Part shown: one piece after another, positions 58,014 through 63,472 of the stretch
How positions within the stretch are numbered: the first letter of the stretch is position 1
Layout of the letters: every line of letters starts with the position of its first letter
Source of the DNA: an uncultured Pseudomonadota bacterium
Lineage (GTDB): Bacteria; Oederibacteriota; Muellerivitia; Muellerivitales; Muellerivitaceae
Direction: 5' to 3'
Assembly: GCA_963836235.1 (NCBI GenBank)
Contig: CAWIIP010000005.1
Coordinates: 96,001-160,000 of the forward strand
Length of the DNA: 64,000 nucleotides
The notes under the pieces: model-generated
The model's database searches: none
Seen by the model: the letters and a program-made list of their open reading frames with translations, nothing else
What the model was told of the DNA's origin: nothing
Translations under genes and position numbers: made by a program

Positions 58014-59184
58014 ATTTGTTAAGGACTCCCATAAGAAGTTCTTGAAACCTTTGGTCCAGTTCCTCATAAGGCAGGCGCTTCTTCGAAATGGCCATTGGGT
58101 CAAACACCTGCTTGCGCAATTGGCTGGCGCCTTCCGCCGTGAACCGGCCCATGATGGCTTCCAGCGCGGGTTCCGTGTTGTGAAGGCTTTTGAGGATTTG
58201 CTGTATCTTCTTGTCCGAGTTGAACTGTCTCACCTTGTCCCAAAGAATGAGATAGGTTCGCATGCTGCCTTCCACGAAATCCCAAACTCCCTTTTCATCC
58301 TCGCTGCGGTAGGGATGCTCGTCAAAGTTACGGGTGCCCGCCCAATGATTGTCCTCCAAAAGCTTGACCACAAAAAAAGTTTCCTTGAGGTCTTCAGAGC
58401 CGAAACGCAGGTCCTGGTCGAAGCGGTTGGGCTTTTGGGCCCCCAGGTCCACGTGGTAAAGCTTGCCGGCTTCCATGGCTTGGCCGAAATCATGGTAGGT
58501 GTTCAGCCCGGCCATGCGGGAATGCTCGATCTCCGGGTTGACGCCGACCATCTCCGGGTAATCCAGCGTTTCAATAAAGGCAAGCACGTGGCCCGCGGTA
58601 GCCAGAAAAATGTCTCCACGCGGTTCGTTGGGCTTGGGCTCAATGGCGAACTTGTAGTCGTAGCCCTGTTGGCGCGCGTAGGAGCAAAGATAGTTCATGC
58701 ATTCCCGGTACCGCTTGAGCGATTCCTCGGGGGTCTTGGAAGCATCTACTTCGGTTCCCTCCCGGCCACCCCAGAATACGTACACCTTGGCGCCCAACTC
58801 GGCTCCCAGGTCCATGTTTTTCATGACCTTCTGCAGGGCGAAAGCCCGGACCTTGGGATCGTGGCTGGTGAAGGCTCCGTCCTTGAAAACCCTGTGGAAA
58901 AAAAGATTGGTAGTAGCCATGGCACAGACGATCTTGTAATCCTTCATGGCCTTTTTGGTGTCCTTGATGATCTTGTTGCGCAGTTGGAGGGAGGCGCCAA
59001 AGGGAATCAGGTCGTCATCATGGAAATTGAACCCATAGACGTTGCGCTTGCCCAGTTCTTTGATGTTGGTAATAGGGTCCAGGCGGGCGCGGGTTTCCTC
59101 ACCGAAGGGGTCCCGTCCGCGATTAGCCGTCGTCCAAAGCCCGAAAGAGAACCGATGCTCTTTTTTGGGTGTAAAAGAACTCAT
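58012..59184 (-). CDS. xylA: Xylose isomerase (short class I type)
   Basis: FSFGLWT..GRDPFG, FHDDDL, WGGREG, IEPKPNEPRGDI, NPE..H, FDQDLRFG. Confidence 0.96.
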   Translation of the reverse strand: MSSFTPKKEHRFSFGLWTTANRGRDPFGEETRARLDPITNIKELGKRNVYGFNFHDDDLIPFGASLQLRNKIIKDTKKAMKDYKIVCAMATTNLFFHRVFKDGAFTSHDPKVRAFALQKVMKNMDLGAELGAKVYVFWGGREGTEVDASKTPEESLKRYRECMNYLCSYARQQGYDYKFAIEPKPNEPRGDIFLATAGHVLAFIETLDYPEMVGVNPEIEHSRMAGLNTYHDFGQAMEAGKLYHVDLGAQKPNRFDQDLRFGSEDLKETFFVVKLLEDNHWAGTRNFDEHPYRSEDEKGVWDFVEGSMRTYLILWDKVRQFNSDKKIQQILKSLHNTEPALEAIMGRFTAEGASQLRKQVFDPMAISKKRLPYEELDQRFQELLMGVLNK

Positions 59185-59225
59185 GAAAACCTCCGATAGT
59201 TGATATGTAACTTTTATGAAATTTG

Positions 59226-59241
59226 TTGCAACCGGTTTAAC
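59226..59241. promoter_or_regulatory. Putative LacI-type operator upstream of xylA
   Basis: TTGCAACCGGTTTAAC, near-palindromic with a central CG. Confidence 0.55.
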
Positions 59242-59359
59242 TTATCACGCATTTTTTTTAATTCAAGCAGGATAAAAGGGCTTTTTCTGGGGTTTTATTC
59301 GAGAAGAGTGGGATAGGTTGGCCCTTTGGGCGAACCCGGCCCCTTTTAGGAGATCGCGT

Positions 59360-59917
59360 CTATTCAGAAATGGGCTGGAAAGTTTTGAGGGCTGGATTAA
59401 CCATCTGGAAGGACTCAAAGAATTTTTTCATGAGTTTGAAGTCGAAGGTCTTGTCCGAAGTGGTGTAATCGAGGAAATAAAACCATTGGCGCACGAGGAA
59501 ATAGCGCCCTGCCGCCACCTGGTGGCCCGCCAAATCCACCAGCTTGAACTCGCAAGCGGGGGCATATTGGTACTTGAAGAAAAAACTGTAAGCCACCTGG
59601 GCTTTCATGTTGGCCGCGAGGCGGTTGATCATCATTCGCATGAAGGGTTCGGGGTTGGTGATCCTTTGGGGTTCCGTGTAATAGCCGAAGCCCACGCTAT
59701 AAAGCCGTCCGTCCGCGTCCGTGGCGCGCCATTCGTCACGTCCCTCGAGTTTTTGGAGCTTTACCGGTGTCGAGACGGAAAAAGACACCTCCGTCGGAAG
59801 CCGGAAAGTCACCCAGGGTTCTTCCCCACGCGCCTTACCCAATCCGAAGTTGAAAATTCCAAGGAAACAAAAAACGGCTAAAGCACCTCTGGCAAACAAT
59901 AGCGAAATTAGATTCAT
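59360..59917 (-). CDS. Hypothetical secreted protein
   Basis: Signal-peptide-like N-terminus from ATG 59917 (the longer ORF start lies inside the tRNA). Confidence 0.6.
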   Translation of the reverse strand: MNLISLLFARGALAVFCFLGIFNFGLGKARGEEPWVTFRLPTEVSFSVSTPVKLQKLEGRDEWRATDADGRLYSVGFGYYTEPQRITNPEPFMRMMINRLAANMKAQVAYSFFFKYQYAPACEFKLVDLAGHQVAAGRYFLVRQWFYFLDYTTSDKTFDFKLMKKFFESFQMVNPALKTFQPISE

Positions 59918-59944
59918 GGGTTTCCTAAAGAAGAGATCTAATTT

Positions 59945-60241
59945 TGGTGGGGCATCCTGGATTTGAACCAGGGACCAAGGCATTCAGGTTTGTGCCGTTT
60001 GCACGGCTCCCTGGACTATCTCTTCACCCATCTGAAGGGTGTGGGATACTTCTTCGCGGTGTTTAAGGGGTCTTTACCCCTCCGCTAGTCTCTGCACCTT
60101 CCCCCGGTGTACCGGGGGCTTGGCTCAGGATTGCCCGTTGCCGGGTTTCCCTGACTTCATCCCATTTCATCCACTGGCTTTCGCCGGTGGCGCACAGCTT
60201 ACGCTATGAGTGCCCTGCTCTGACCGCTGAGCTAATGCCCC
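59945..60241 (-). tRNA. ileX: tRNA-Ile2 (CAU), intron-containing; exons 60241-60206 and 59984-59945
   Basis: Spliced GGGGCATTAGCTCAGCGGTCAGAGCAGGGCACTCAT^AATGCCTTGGTCCCTGGTTCAAATCCAGGATGCCCCACCA folds as a cloverleaf with encoded CCA; resembles E. coli ileX and lies downstream of rpoD; elongator Met not fully excluded. Confidence 0.88.
59985..60205 (-). ncRNA. Group I self-splicing intron (Azoarcus-like, 221 nt, no ORF)
   Basis: P1 CAU^AGC-GUAA-GCUGUG with U.G at the splice site; AAUCCUGAGC, GCAGAGACUA, AAGAGAUAGUCC core; P2, P5 and P9 GNRA loops; terminal G. Confidence 0.92.
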
Positions 60242-60299
60242 GCTTAATTTTCAATAGATTATGCGATTGTTTGATCTTTCGGAAGAAAAAACGACCGGC

Positions 60300-60641
60300 T
60301 TAGACTGCCTTGGTCAAATCCACCCGCTTGATTAAATCAACCACTTCAACCTTGAGAACCTTCGAAACCTTCTCGATTACGTCAAGGGTGGGGCTGAACT
60401 TAGCCGTTATGTCTTCCAAGTATTGTACGGCCCTGCATGAAACACCGGACTTTGCCGCAAGCTGAGCTTGGGAAAACCCAAGCTGAGTACGATGATCCAT
60501 AGTATTCCAAGCAACACAGGCCCTAAGGCTTGGATGTTTCAAGGAGGAATAAATTTCCGGTCTTTTTTTCTTCAAGAGGCGGATATGCTCTTGGGTGGTA
60601 ATGAACCCCTCTAATTTTATTTTCTTGGTGGTCGCTTTCAT
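60300..60641 (-). CDS. XRE-family HTH protein (HigA-like)
   Basis: R..LGFSQAQLAAKSGVS...VQYLE...PTLDVIEKV...L.V. Confidence 0.85.
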   Translation of the reverse strand: MKATTKKIKLEGFITTQEHIRLLKKKRPEIYSSLKHPSLRACVAWNTMDHRTQLGFSQAQLAAKSGVSCRAVQYLEDITAKFSPTLDVIEKVSKVLKVEVVDLIKRVDLTKAV

Positions 60642-60687
60642 TTTTTCACCCTTCCCAACCGCATCATTTCCATGTCATGCGAATAGC

Positions 60688-61005
60688 TTAAATCTTTTCC
60701 AACTTCTTAATAACCTCGTTTAGAGGTATTGACTTAACTTTTCCCGACCGCATATCCGCGGCCCGCTTTTTAATCTCAGCCGCTTCATTGGCCGGGGGTT
60801 TGGAAAACGCCCAGCCGTTGTATTCATATACCGCTTTCTTAATCGAGCTTACAAGTTTATGGTCCCGGGGGCTCTCGTGAATATGGCGGATTTTTTCATC
60901 TATTGCTTCGTTGATGAAGCTGGATAAATCGGCATAGTGTTGCTTCTTGGCAATTTCTCGAAGCGTCCGGGGGTTCACTTTTGGCCTAAAATTGATGGCT
61001 TGCAT
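60688..61005 (-). CDS. Putative RHH-type antitoxin/regulator (pair 2)
   Basis: AAGGAGG RBS; AINFR...LSSFINEAI; D...GK.K.I tail shared with 51357..51686. Confidence 0.6.
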   Translation of the reverse strand: MQAINFRPKVNPRTLREIAKKQHYADLSSFINEAIDEKIRHIHESPRDHKLVSSIKKAVYEYNGWAFSKPPANEAAEIKKRAADMRSGKVKSIPLNEVIKKLEKI

Positions 61006-61038
61006 AGCAGGGCCTCCTTTAACGATATCGCTACCCAT

Positions 61039-61067
61039 ATCGTATTACGTCCGTATTACACCGTCAA
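61039..61067 (-). promoter_or_regulatory. sigma70 promoter with tandem GTAATACG repeats
   Basis: TTGACG-N17-TACGAT; GTAATACG twice at 11-bp spacing overlapping the -10. Confidence 0.65.
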
Positions 61068-61072
61068 GATGG

Positions 61073-61336
61073 TTACCGGACTAGTTTCACATGGGTAATT
61101 TGGACCGTCTTTGTGTTGAAATGGGCTTCTCCTGAAATACGAAGCATTTGGCCGGTTTCGGCTCGGAAGAGGTCTAAACCCTTATGCTTGTAAACGAAGA
61201 ACCACTTTTCTGGCGGGAAGTTTTCCAAGATTTTAAGACGGGCCAAAATATCAGGCCTCAAATCTTGGTTGGTTTCATAGATTTTCGCAAGTTGATCTTC
61301 CGCCTCTGACGAAAGACTTACTTTCCATTTTTCCAT
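61073..61336 (-). CDS. Putative RelE/ParE-like small toxin (pair 2)
   Basis: 87 aa; WKVSLSSEAEDQL..I N-terminus typical of RelE/ParE; FPPEKW. Confidence 0.55.
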   Translation of the reverse strand: MEKWKVSLSSEAEDQLAKIYETNQDLRPDILARLKILENFPPEKWFFVYKHKGLDLFRAETGQMLRISGEAHFNTKTVQITHVKLVR

Positions 61337-61426
61337 ATTCCCCTCCCCGATACGGCCCATGGTAGCCAAACGCTATTTTGCGGGAAACAATAAAAGACAG
61401 TTCCCGCAGGAAAAACCTCCAAACAG

Positions 61427-61729
61427 CTTGTCATATACGTGTCATTCGTTTGATACATTCCAGACCTTTTTCCGTCATTCTGAGCAAGGCACTCAATGAC
61501 AAGTAGGTGCCATGCTCAACCAATAACTAAAAGTGTCCTGCTCTGGCATTTTTGGCTTTTCAAGAGCAAGGCACTCCAATGACAAGGAGAGGTACCGAAC
61601 CGGTCGAGAAAAAATATTTTCGAGCGGTGGGGGAAATTTTCTGCTCTGCTTTTTTAAAAAAATATATTTTTCGTCGAATCAAAAAATCAAAAGTATCCCA
61701 AAAGGGCACTTGTCATAACCGTGTCATTC
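61427..61729. repeat. Cluster of direct repeats with a TGTCAT/ATGACA core
   Basis: CTTGTCATAnnCGTGTCATTC at 61427 and 61709; GAGCAAGGCACTC(C)AATGACAAG at 61482 and 61564. Confidence 0.7.
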
Positions 61730-61908
61730 AAACTCGTTTTTTGCCGGTTTTGACCCTCGCTGACCGGCGCTGTCCGTCACTTCAAAAAAAAGGCCTCGGC
61801 CCGCTTTGGTGTTAAAACCATTGCAGGCAAAGGCCTTTGAAACTTGCTGGGGACAAGAATTTTTTGCTGCTCACGACCCTTGGTTACCGAAGGTAACACG
61901 AAAAAAAT

Positions 61909-62491
61909 TTATGAGTGCCCTGCTCTAACCGCTGAGCTAATGCCCCTTTGTGCTTGAACCGGCTTTGTCTTTCCGAACCAAGTAGTGGTAGATTTTCGCA
62001 GATAACCCATCACTTTGTCGATATTTCGTTGAAGGGTTTCCGGGCTTTTTAAGTGGTTCAAATACCGGTTTAATTCCTTTTGGTGTGAGGGGCTGAGCCT
62101 CTTGAAAACACTTTTGGCCTTCGGGTCTTTTTTTGATTCCCCAGCCAGGGCCGGATTCATCGGGACCACCGGCGGTTTTAAATCCAACTGTAAAACAACC
62201 CCGATCCGGTCTCCCACGTCTTTGCCAACCGCCTTGCGCATGACCCCATGAAGGTAAAGTCGGTGATGGGTTCCGGGAGTCGCTTTGGTACGCTTGAGCC
62301 CCAAGGGCATTAGGTTGGCCCGAAAAGGGAGGGAGTCCAGCCAAACCTTTACGGATATAACGCCCTTTTTCCCGCCTCTCCCTATGCAAATCTTCGGGAT
62401 GCAAGCAAGGCGCGGCCTGTCCCAATGGATGGTCCACATAGGGATTGATGCATTCTTTTTGAATGACCACTCGAAACGAGACTTTCTTCAC
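61909..62491 (-). pseudogene. Frameshifted DUF1905/YdeI-OmpD-associated protein
   Basis: MKKVSF...INPYVD in one frame; FRANLMP..HRLYL..MRKAVGKDVGD and F..LSPSHQKE in another. Confidence 0.65.
61911..61946 (-). repeat. Orphan tRNA-Ile2 5' half (att-like duplication)
   Basis: GGGGCATTAGCTCAGCGGTTAGAGCAGGGCACTCAT ending at the anticodon; no 3' half follows. Confidence 0.9.
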
Positions 62492-62507
62492 CCCGGCTTC
62501 CTAAAAC

Positions 62508-62540
62508 AATAAAGGCGGGCTTTTAAAGCCCGCCTTTATT
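62508..62540. terminator. Intrinsic terminator (potentially bidirectional)
   Basis: Perfect dyad AATAAAGGCGGGCTTT/AAAGCCCGCCTTTATT. Confidence 0.75.
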
Positions 62541-62572
62541 TTAAACAAATCTTTATTGGAGCGACTGGAATT

Positions 62573-63472
62573 TTACCCCTGGTTGTAGACCCCCGCGAAA
62601 ACCGTGGCGAATTCCTCGATGGGGGTCTTCCCCCGGTGCTCCGAGGTCAGGGGTTGGGTCGGGTGAAGCTTTCCCTCGGTCCCGGCCTTGTACATCTCGA
62701 CCATGAGGTCGGTCATTCCCGGCTTGAAGCCGCTTCCCAGCAATCCCTTTTTGATGTCCTCCAGGGAAAACTGCACGTATGGCAGGTCCGGCTTGCCGAT
62801 GGCCTTGCCCAAGGCGGCGGTCACTTCCGTCTGGGTATATTCCTTGGGCCCCGTGAAGTCGAAGGCCTCATGCCCCTTGAAATGAAGCCCGTCCAGCAAC
62901 TCCGCCGCCTTCTCGCCGATATCCCGGGTGGCCACCGTGGGCAGGGGGATGTTTCCCGGGGTCGCGGCGCCGTTGATGCCGTTGCCCTTGATGACCGGGA
63001 TGGAAAAGAAATTGTTTTCCATGAAAGAGCTGGGGCGCAGGTGGACGACGTTCACCCCGGAAAGCTTGTTCAAGCGCTGTTCCTGGCGGTAGAGCCCGGC
63101 GATGGGGCCGGTGCCGCTGGGCTGTTCCGCACCGATGGAGCTGAGGTCCACGACGTATTTCACACCGGACTGGGTGATGGCCTGGACGATGGCTTCCCCG
63201 GCCTTGTACTGGAAGGCGGAAAAATCATCCGCGGCGTAGTTGGGCGGGATCATGACGAAGACCCCGTCCGCGCCCTTAAAGGCCTCGGCAAGGGCCCCGG
63301 CGTCGTCAAAGTTGGGCGAGAGGGTTTCGGCCCCCTTGGCTTTCAAGGCCGAAAGCTTTTTCGCGTCCCGGCCAAGGGCCCGCACCGCGTGCCCCTTTTC
63401 AAGAAGTTTTTCCGACAGGACATGGCCGATATGGCCGGTGGCCCCCATGATGGCGTAAGTTTTTTTCGACAT
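62573..63472 (-). CDS. NmrA-family NAD(P)-binding protein
   Basis: GATGHIG, ADGVFVMIPP, LSSIGA, LRPSSFMEN, VATRDIG; AGGAGG RBS. Confidence 0.9.
   Translation of the reverse strand: MSKKTYAIMGATGHIGHVLSEKLLEKGHAVRALGRDAKKLSALKAKGAETLSPNFDDAGALAEAFKGADGVFVMIPPNYAADDFSAFQYKAGEAIVQAITQSGVKYVVDLSSIGAEQPSGTGPIAGLYRQEQRLNKLSGVNVVHLRPSSFMENNFFSIPVIKGNGINGAATPGNIPLPTVATRDIGEKAAELLDGLHFKGHEAFDFTGPKEYTQTEVTAALGKAIGKPDLPYVQFSLEDIKKGLLGSGFKPGMTDLMVEMYKAGTEGKLHPTQPLTSEHRGKTPIEEFATVFAGVYNQG

Follow-up and report, generated by a model that had tools for sequence, protein, structure and literature searches.

An integrative element that probably splits the host tRNA-Ile2 gene and supplies an intron-bearing replacement, left as a truncated end in an uncultured bacterium

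Why should a bacterium hold the 5′ half of one tRNA gene twice, and why should the copy that belongs to the complete gene be the one interrupted by an intron? The question is posed by a 64,000-nt stretch of an uncultured bacterial genome (assembly GCA_963836235.1, contig CAWIIP010000005.1, positions 96,001 to 160,000; hereafter the window), in which the minus strand encodes a tRNA(CAU) at 60241..59945. In this gene a 36-nt 5′ exon and a 40-nt 3′ exon are separated by a 221-nt insert, and a second copy of the 5′ exon lies upstream. Combining feature searches in the window with a comparison of related genomes, we arrive at an answer that we consider probable: an integrative element splits an intronless host tRNA-Ile2 gene, rebuilds neither of its halves and brings a complete, intron-bearing tRNA-Ile2 gene of its own, and the window preserves the truncated left end of such an element. 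Throughout, G000 denotes the genome of the window, other G numbers the comparison genomes and L numbers individual contigs; features of the window are given in its own coordinates and lie on the minus strand unless a strand is stated.

The complete gene divides cleanly into its parts. The 5′ exon (60206..60241), recognized in the sequence, by pattern search and by ARAGORN, holds tRNA positions 1-36; the insert (59985..60205) falls between U36 and A37; and the 3′ exon (59945..59984), identified from the sequence and by ARAGORN, holds positions 37-76 with an encoded CCA and abuts the host DNA downstream. The insert matches the Rfam group I intron family RF00028 over the whole model (model positions 1-253) at 67.6 bits against a cut-off of 50 (E 3e-16), and it is the only such match in the five contigs (3.97 Mb) of G000. 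ARAGORN reports a tRNA (cat) with i(37,221) when introns are allowed and calls no tRNA at the window locus without the intron option. The intron site lies inside the 7-nt anticodon loop, and the two arms of the anticodon stem stand 221 nt apart. The 58-nt spacer in front of the gene (60242..60299) is where the promoter of the element's tRNA gene would be expected, with a CATAAT about 20 nt before +1; a scan for the sigma-70 consensus gave no strict match and called no promoter in this spacer, and -10-like hexamers occur at the equivalent spot in relatives.

Three tRNAs of G000 carry a CAU anticodon. One shows the initiator C1-A72 mismatch together with three G-C pairs in the anticodon stem, a second looks elongator-like, and G000 encodes a TilS protein (TIGR02432 scores 188.7 bits, its cut-off being 93.6; a search with the TilS domain model PF09179 gave no match). 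Because the other two are of initiator and elongator appearance and TilS is present, we assign the intron-bearing gene, by elimination, to tRNA-Ile2, which we take to resemble E. coli ileX. As a separate observation, the TilS gene (G000:C2:696732-697473) directly adjoins the elongator-type tRNA(CAU) and not the tRNA-Ile2 that TilS modifies.

The intron itself bears the marks of a maintained RNA structure. RF00028 matches occur in 10 of the 31 genomes of the family to which G000 belongs, at 62-86 bits, and we aligned 16 introns, namely those of G000, nine genomes, five contigs and G025, which belongs to another family. Across this alignment 18 of the 69 predicted pairs have changed on both sides with pairing kept, and all 16 introns retain both the U.G pair at the 5′ splice site and the terminal G. 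The compensatory changes together with these conserved residues indicate, at the level of sequence, a group I ribozyme under structural selection, and self-splicing is predicted from the group I class. Among public assembled contigs, one from an RNA library spans the unspliced tRNA gene of a relative, which shows neither transcription nor splicing, and a second spans the 5′ half and the start of the module that follows it, which is no proof of transcription. Group I introns also occur elsewhere in the phylum: in five genomes from four other families, tRNA-Asn(GTT) carries introns of 210-521 nt after position 35 (L095, L097, L099, L100 and L103, from G090, G083, G082, G031 and G093, respectively).

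The upstream copy of the 5′ exon has a different origin. A repeat search finds a 37-nt direct repeat with one mismatch (60205-60241 and 61910-61946), its copies 1.7 kb apart, and a genome-wide pattern search finds the 36-nt exon in exactly two copies in G000 with no control matches; the duplication noticed in the initial annotation is real. The mismatch falls at tRNA position 20, which is C in the working gene and T in the upstream copy. That annotation had further placed the end of the identity at the junction of anticodon and intron. Compared with the spliced tRNA, however, the upstream copy (61909..61946, 97.4% identical) runs on to position 38 in G000 and to 39-40 in relatives, passing the intron site by 2-4 nt and ending with a complete anticodon loop, CTCATAA. 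The corresponding halves of the relatives run through CTCATAAT(G), or the variant CTCATAATG, without a break at the intron site. Since the upstream copy holds the whole unbroken 7-nt loop, it derives from an intronless gene, and we read it as positions 1-38 of the original tRNA-Ile2 of the host, a remnant on the attL side.

Relatives supply the parts that the window lacks. We searched for the 5′ exon in all 31 genomes of the family and found it in 26. Fifteen of these contain one uninterrupted tRNA-Ile2 gene, which provides the empty site that the initial annotation had proposed to look for. Nine (G000, G001, G003, G004, G005, G008, G018, G020 and G046) contain two 5′ copies, the downstream one intron-bearing; G014 contains the intron-bearing gene alone; and G006 is unresolved at contig ends. 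A scan of metagenomes for the left junction added seven contigs, six with both copies and the intron and one that is cut off. The intron is thereby present at 15 of 15 loci with both 5′ copies (nine genomes and six metagenome contigs, not all independent). The two copies lie 353-517 nt apart in five genomes and four contigs and 1.5-7 kb apart in the others, so that the distance from the left end to the complete intron-bearing tRNA(CAU) is 353-517 nt, or 1.5-7 kb in elements with inserted cassettes.

The counterpart of the displaced 5′ half is a displaced 3′ half, which we sought by way of the uninterrupted locus of a relative and then with a pattern for the junction of loop and 3′ exon in all 31 genomes. 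It was found in five of the nine genomes with two 5′ copies (G001, G003, G004, G020 and G046), in each case beginning exactly at C32, with the loop contiguous with the 3′ exon. Where both halves share a contig they are 17.6 kb (G001) and 22.6 kb (G003) apart. In all five an open integrase reading frame (ORF) lies 67-87 nt before the 3′ half, four of them of 380-416 aa and that of G004 cut by the contig end; the G001 protein matches PF00589 (Phage_integrase) at 103.6 bits. These tRNA-Ile2 integrases group in a separate clade, with identities of 68-93% among themselves and of 55-72% to the six integrases of the same kind in G000 described below. The recombinase targeting tRNA-Ile(CAU) that the initial annotation had suggested seeking thus has candidates in five relatives, though none in G000. 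In the same five genomes attL ends in ...CTCATAAT(G) and attR starts with (CA)CTCATAATG..., the two sharing 8-10 bp, and each junction holds only half a tRNA gene, neither being rebuilt. The layout in relatives accordingly reads host 5′ half, left-end module, intron-bearing tRNA, body, integrase and host 3′ half.

Two sequence markers separate the working gene from the host halves. Position 20 is C in the working 5′ exon and T in the displaced half in G000, G008 and L090, and position 57 in G003 is G in the working 3′ exon and A in the displaced host 3′ half. From these differences we conclude that the working tRNA gene is foreign and wholly element-borne. Its exons are otherwise identical to the target tRNA-Ile2. 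We suggest that the integrase would use a core of 8-10 bp to recombine with an intronless host tRNA-Ile2(CAU) gene at its 7-nt anticodon loop, and that the host gene would remain as two dead halves, one at each end of the element. The element would meanwhile carry its own tRNA-Ile2 gene with a promoter region about 350-450 nt inside its left end, and its copy would offer no attB, the intron separating the arms of the stem and splitting the 7-bp crossover region.

What became of the right-hand side in the window? G000 has neither a displaced 3′ half nor an integrase of the tRNA-Ile2 clade, and none of its eight PF00589 genes lies at the tRNA-Ile2 locus. In G001, a member of the same genus, the order is rpoD, 5′ half, element, 3′ half, a gene for a 185-aa protein, xylA and lacI. 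The same host genes are present in G000, where the element's tRNA lies 27 nt from the gene for the 185-aa, secreted-looking protein (59360-59917; 76.8% aa identity to its G001 homologue, which sits between the displaced 3′ half and xylA); this host gene anchors the synteny across the lost right junction. Both xylA and lacI are syntenic between the two genomes, XylA being 92.5% identical at the amino acid level. Similarly, the flank after the working tRNA of G018 resembles that after the intronless tRNA of G045 and that after the displaced 3′ half of G003. It is therefore likely that the window holds a stump, the truncated left end of a tRNA-Ile2 element from which the body, the integrase and the host 3′ half have gone. 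In the lineage of the window, a deletion would have removed all that lay between the 3′ exon of the element and the 3′ half of the host, body and integrase included, most plausibly by recombination between the two identical copies of the 3′ exon, and would have joined the element's tRNA to the host genes downstream, fixing it as the only tRNA-Ile2 of the cell. The state seen in G014 could be the next step, in which recombination between the two 5′ copies leaves the intron-bearing gene alone. The scar of an integrative element at tRNA-Ile2, and a decayed element with no integrase remaining, are points on which the initial annotation is upheld.

The mechanism gains context from the other islands of G000. 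In this genome six paralogous tyrosine integrases measure 366-386 aa and share 57-70% identity, and every one of their genes ends 16-50 nt from a tRNA gene; their six islands measure 8-65 kb (C2:1162415-1186838, C2:1355085-1375080, C5:236069-273522 on the window contig, C2:500995-509751 and C4:131762-245961). Three islands rebuild the 5′ part in reversed orientation, at the intronless genes for tRNA-Ser(TGA), tRNA-Ser(CGA) and tRNA-Arg(TCG), so that a 5′ part from the element is joined to a 3′ part from the host and only a 5′ fragment is displaced. The other three rebuild the 3′ part, at tRNA-Asp and, as a tandem pair, at tRNA-Thr. Displaced 5′ parts end 1-2 nt past the loop (Ser-TGA, Ser-CGA) or reach position 49 (Arg-TCG), displaced 3′ parts begin at position 31-32 (Asp, Thr), and the sole stretch common to the identity blocks of all six is the anticodon loop. 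Judged by these junctions, one integrase family uses the anticodon loop in both orientations within one genome; by analogy with lambda-type integrases, the loop would be the crossover region and the arms of the stem the core sites of the integrase. As far as genome sequences tell, this integrase-island family is abundant in G000 and in its family of candidate division FCPU426 bacteria.

Membership of the tRNA-Ile2 element in this integrase-island family is also visible at its left end. Directly after the displaced half in the window follows a module, S-left (61700..61908), defined by an alignment of 11 copies with a mean column identity of 78% and invariant blocks. It comprises a hairpin seen by folding and alignment (61883-61897), a TGTCCCCAGCA box (61845-61855), a terminator-like hairpin followed by a T run (61792-61835, from the fold) and an invariant 19-nt motif, GAATGACACGGTTATGACA (61711-61729), and it folds at -56.6 kcal/mol (z -2.35); an Rfam search at E up to 1 across 59000-63000 gave no match inside it. 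We interpret the module as the presumptive arm region of the integrase, combined with a terminator that would halt transcription entering from the former tRNA promoter. G000 has four more copies, 80-85% identical, which follow the upstream tRNA half at integrase-bearing island ends and adjoin displaced pieces of tRNA-Ser(CGA), tRNA-Arg(TCG) and tRNA-Asp(GTC); one of them, at C2:1368632, is internal to the tRNA-Ser(CGA) island and retains no more than ~6 nt of a tRNA. Copies of the module occur in 26 of the 31 genomes of the family. Each tRNA-Ile2 locus has one left-end module beside the 5′ half and one integrase of the family beside the 3′ half, the normal two ends of a family member, and none of the nine genomes checked has a module following the working tRNA. 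One module and one integrase per locus, with none after the working tRNA, point to a single element and not two. The 19-nt motif of the left end, GAATGACACG..TATGACA, is also found within the 3′ end of integrase genes (G000:C2:1374890-1374912), where it encodes N-D-T-x-M-T; this copy inside coding sequence is possibly an arm-type binding site.

Why, then, does the element's tRNA gene carry an intron at all? Tyrosine recombinases cleave at sites 6-8 bp apart and require matching overlap, as set out in the discussion of PMC10865867. The intron splits the 7-bp loop, and because such enzymes need close cleavage sites and a matching overlap, it would keep the element's own tRNA copy from serving as attB for the element's integrase, by analogy with characterized enzymes. 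An element that lacked the intron would carry a fully matching attB within a few hundred bases of the core of its own attP. Other roles that we considered were set aside. An intron forming part of the working attP was rejected, given that the crossover common to the six sibling islands is the very 7-nt loop that the intron splits; the GGCAC at the 3′ end of the intron resembles the anticodon stem and is not conserved in G008, G003 and G025. A giant intron with two 5′ splice sites, or an insertion by reverse splicing, fails on the AAT(G) after the upstream half, on the terminator-like hairpin and on the integrase-linked 3′ halves.

The same structure could have arisen with no recombination role for the intron, the tRNA-Ile2 having been captured from an intron-bearing host and the intron riding along. 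Introns at the same site in tRNA(CAU) genes that lack displaced halves (G014, G025 and G073) speak for this, as does the fact that the mycobacteriophage systems function without any intron, a word found in PMC10865867 only among its references. Nevertheless we regard it as rather unlikely: the working gene is intron-bearing at all 15 two-copy loci while its exons are otherwise those of the target, an intronless copy would create the self-made attB just described, and the intron of G014 nests among element-borne introns (80% with G004) and may derive from an element instead of preceding one. It is harder still to see two independent elements flanking the host gene, a small reversed island that rebuilds the 5′ part and a classical island that rebuilds the 3′ part, with an intron acquired later that blocked excision of both. 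Islands of both kinds are present in G000 at other tRNAs, an intron in the crossover loop would block a tyrosine recombinase, and both displaced halves are of the intronless type. Against this, each locus has a single left-end module and a single family integrase, with none after the working tRNA, and the intron would have had to follow two integrations, yet it sits in every copy and travels between genera; we consider the two-element model improbable. A version of it, a small reversed island with its right junction locked by a later intron, was dropped as our leading explanation once the integrase-linked host 3′ halves had been found.

The initial annotation had instead pictured integration into an intron-bearing host gene with duplication of its 5′ exon, the intron having spoiled the 3′-type site that is normally used, and in that scheme entry could possibly have been a homologous crossover in the 36-nt exon. 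The layout of G000 would indeed follow from one homologous crossover that joined an intron-bearing gene to a 5′ half carried by an element, and island-free intron-bearing tRNA(CAU) genes exist. Yet the scheme leaves unexplained the integrase-linked, uninterrupted 3′ halves of five relatives and the marker by which, in G003, the displaced 3′ half differs from the working 3′ exon; we judge it very improbable. Several of its premises fall with it. The target was not intron-bearing, the displaced host halves being uninterrupted across the intron site; nor did the intron cause the 5′ duplication, for sibling islands displace 5′ parts of the intronless Ser(TGA), Ser(CGA) and Arg(TCG) genes of G000. 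The 1.7 kb between the repeats is likewise not the island, for relatives that lack its three genes keep both 5′ halves 353-517 nt apart, literally the finding that the annotation had named as refuting it, and the body and integrase lie downstream of the tRNA in five genomes. The view that the element supplies the 5′ exon and promoter region holds, but too little was credited to it, the whole gene with intron and 3′ exon being supplied, as the C20/T20 and G57/A57 markers indicate. An assembly artefact or chance repeat, finally, is barely credible. The genomes are metagenome-assembled, and contigs break at the tRNA in G002, G006 and G046; however, the same layout recurs in nine genomes and six metagenome contigs, including contigs of 273 kb and 1.29 Mb, and in a five-contig genome that is 99.4% complete, and the 36-nt pattern gave no control matches.

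Several observations count against an element that splits and replaces the host tRNA-Ile2, and they temper our confidence in it. The identity of the tRNA itself is taken by elimination among three CAU tRNAs and from the presence of TilS. In G000 the right-hand parts, integrase and host 3′ half, are absent, so the reading of the window leans on relatives; the route of the deletion is a reconstruction, and the immediate junction sequence of G000 cannot be aligned to that of G001. Four of the nine two-copy genomes (G000, G005, G008 and G018) have no displaced 3′ half, although G008 is only 65% complete and the G005 contig stops 3.8 kb downstream, and in G004, G020 and G046 the 3′ half and integrase are on other contigs, where linkage is assumed. 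In public assembled contigs, the only material of this kind consulted, we observed no excision circle, no empty site of the same strain and no splicing. Two genomes, G014 and, from another family, G025, have a homologous tRNA(CAU) intron but no displaced half, and G073 has both an intron-bearing and an intronless tRNA(CAU) gene; the intron also exists outside elements, then, and may be a mere passenger. The tRNA-Asn introns show no displaced halves in any of their five genomes, in all five of which the uninterrupted tRNA-Asn junction is absent. With no displaced halves at the tRNA-Asn introns or in G025, there is no general rule that joins such introns to elements. On the two genes of G073, both of tRNA-Ile2 type (L111, L172), we note that their T arms differ and that they lie on separate contigs, as two genes of one genome or a mixed bin would show.

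Comparison of element and host sequences speaks for mobility. In their element parts G000 and G046, which belong to different genera, are 91-97% identical, and for G000 and contig L090, whose flanks are unrelated, the figure is 95%. At the conserved end of rpoD the identity is only 79% for G000 and G046, and 85% for G000 and its congener G001. The intron (87%) and left-end module (61%) of G001 are among the least similar to those of G000 of all compared. Trees of intron and of module agree in pairing G000 with G046 and G001 with G020. In an RpoB tree of 27 genomes (G004, G014, G023, G041 and G046 were omitted for lack of the gene, and six rows are partial), carriers and empty sites alternate among close relatives, as in G003 versus G019, G018 versus G024, and G005 with G020 versus G045. 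Within the intron tree, G014 is nested among element-borne introns beside G004, with 80% support. The junction also troubles assemblies: contigs end or begin within the tRNA 5′ half or 16 nt before it in G002 (L023/L031), G046 (L072) and G006 (L012/L166), and at that half the ends of two G002 contigs share an overlap of exactly 55 nt. This pattern suggests a fork in the assembly graph between occupied and empty alleles in mixed populations, though it is no proof. In contigs from public runs a joint of 59982 to 61909 reads as an uninterrupted tRNA, its sides measuring 29 and 18 letters and its depth exceeding that of the island; this joint may derive from co-occurring relatives.

Taking the element that splits and replaces tRNA-Ile2 as our frame, we tentatively go one step further, to a proposal that we hold possible at somewhat short of an even chance. 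The intron may be an adaptive part of the element: because it splits the 7-bp crossover loop, the element could replace the gene that it destroys with a perfect, functional copy that its own integrase would not attack. The element may in turn be a vehicle for the intron, stepwise recombination between exons removing first the body (the window, G018) and then the left end (G014) until an intron-bearing gene is left with no scar.

The space between the left-end module and the tRNA gene differs from one element to the next. In the window it begins with a variable spacer (61370..61699) that is not homologous to the matching stretch in G046 and that holds a second copy of the 19-nt motif (61429-61447). 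Three 13-nt look-alikes of a stretch from D stem to anticodon stem of the tRNA were found by repeat search (61482-61494 and 61564-61576 on the plus strand, 61531-61543 on the minus strand); they may be mimics of core-type integrase sites or debris of earlier recombination. Next come three small genes. An 88-aa ORF (61073..61339) has no match in Pfam, NCBIfam or PADLOC, and its nearest Atlas clusters by language-model similarity are 'plasmid stabilization system' (0.94) and PF05016 ParE_toxin (0.92), which makes it a candidate ParE/RelE-like toxin and a lead only. A 105-aa ORF (60688..61005) is a candidate antitoxin or addiction-module component from matches that are both below threshold (PF09720, 22.4 bits against a cut-off of 23.3; TIGR02574, 17.2 against 31.9). 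The third gene (60300..60641) encodes a 113-aa XRE-type helix-turn-helix protein that matches PF01381 (HTH_3) at 29.4 bits against a cut-off of 23. We found no integrase between the two repeats. The gene content given in the initial annotation stands for the XRE-type gene, above its cut-off, and for the missing integrase, and 'toxin-like' describes a language-model resemblance. The cassette (61407-60242) is 91% identical in G046 and 88.5% identical in contig L094, is partly present in L090, and occupies the same spot in all three, between left-end module and tRNA. The three genes would accordingly be an accessory cassette of one variant of the element, not the island itself.

Other neighbours merit brief mention. 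On the host side of the displaced 5′ half in the window, a YdeI/OmdA-like host ORF (61909-62439, minus strand) has no stop of its own, reads through the tRNA half and ends at the TAA of the anticodon loop; the stop of its G018 homologue comes before the tRNA half. In G005 (L032 = G005:C95), the first 19-20 nt of the tRNA occur three times at the displaced half, repeating every 108 nt on its upstream side and with the start of the half itself as the third copy, and the island there is without the usual left-end module and carries genes that, judged from sequence, are AbiE-like and PIN-like. The body of the element is best seen in G001, where a Pfam scan of 14 ORFs found IS21 genes, a cytosine methylase, RadC, three further tyrosine recombinases and a SocA/Panacea protein, and no capsid, tail or terminase family. 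On its Pfam gene content this element looks like an island rather than a prophage, though it may conceivably be a cryptic phage. The three recombinase genes stand in a row (L164:11064-14360), by appearance a recombinase-trio element, and the IS21-type genes form a pair (L164:3790-6101).

Group I introns in the anticodon loops of bacterial tRNAs are known from tRNA-Ile(CAU) of Azoarcus and tRNA-Leu(UAA) of cyanobacteria, and the window intron resembles these in its size class (about 200-220 nt), in being ORF-less, in its place in the anticodon loop after a U and in its match to RF00028. How such ORF-less introns spread and persist in bacterial tRNA genes has been debated since their discovery. 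We know of no link between bacterial tRNA group I introns and an integrative element, and our literature search found no paper linking a group I intron to an element-borne or att-site tRNA, nor one describing such an intron at the crossover site of the integrase in a replacement tRNA that an element carries. Likewise, to our knowledge, defence against integrating elements by tRNA introns has been argued only for archaea, and there only for host genes. Were the intron adaptive for the element, ORF-less bacterial tRNA introns would have a function and, in addition, a way to spread horizontally. Integrases of one family, the loop that they target and an intron inside this loop are found together here in comparable natural variants (intact elements, a stump, an intron-only gene and empty sites), which makes the idea of protection by the intron testable by simple recombination assays. 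The stump further implies that an essential host tRNA gene can be replaced permanently by the copy of a mobile element.

Three known systems frame these observations. According to the description in PMC4090602, Randau and Soll (2008) proposed that archaeal tRNA introns and split tRNA genes keep integrating elements and viruses out. Our proposal shares with theirs, as summarized there, the destruction of attB by an intron in the anticodon loop; in contrast, the archaeal introns are spliced by proteins and protect host genes, whereas here a bacterial group I intron lies in the element's own tRNA and would be self-protective. A minority of elements at tRNA genes are known to displace the 5′ part, according to PMC6563490, which cites Zhao and Williams (2002) for this reversed target orientation with the 5′-distal tRNA part. 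As in the reversed-orientation elements covered there, a displaced 5′ fragment stands upstream of the working gene and the promoter comes from the element. The tRNA-Ile2 element falls outside that class, since it displaces the host 3′ half as well and carries the whole of the working gene itself.

The closest known system is the tRNA-dependent lysogeny of actinobacteriophages such as Fionnbharth and those of Cluster L. As Guerrero-Bustamante and Hatfull describe it (2024; PMC10865867), the core measures about 10 bp, the host tRNA is not rebuilt, and a phage tRNA of the same isotype complements the loss. The likeness to what they describe extends to a tyrosine integrase, to attP and attB that overlap the anticodon loop of a host tRNA and share about 10 bp, and to the absence of rebuilding. 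Unlike the phages presented there, the tRNA-Ile2 element has an uncultured candidate phylum as its host, no phage structural genes among the 14 ORFs scanned in G001, and a replacement tRNA whose exons are those of its target and whose crossover loop is interrupted by a group I intron; in the window, the element has in addition lost its integrase and right junction. Integrase, short core and replacement tRNA are all present in relatives, the phage being the feature that differs. That cells with the element would depend on its tRNA is suggested for G000 only indirectly, by a 5′ exon confined to the working gene and the upstream half, by three CAU tRNAs in all and by the presence of TilS. Our comparison would thereby extend a design that destroys one tRNA gene and supplies another from the actinobacteriophages to the islands of an uncultured phylum.

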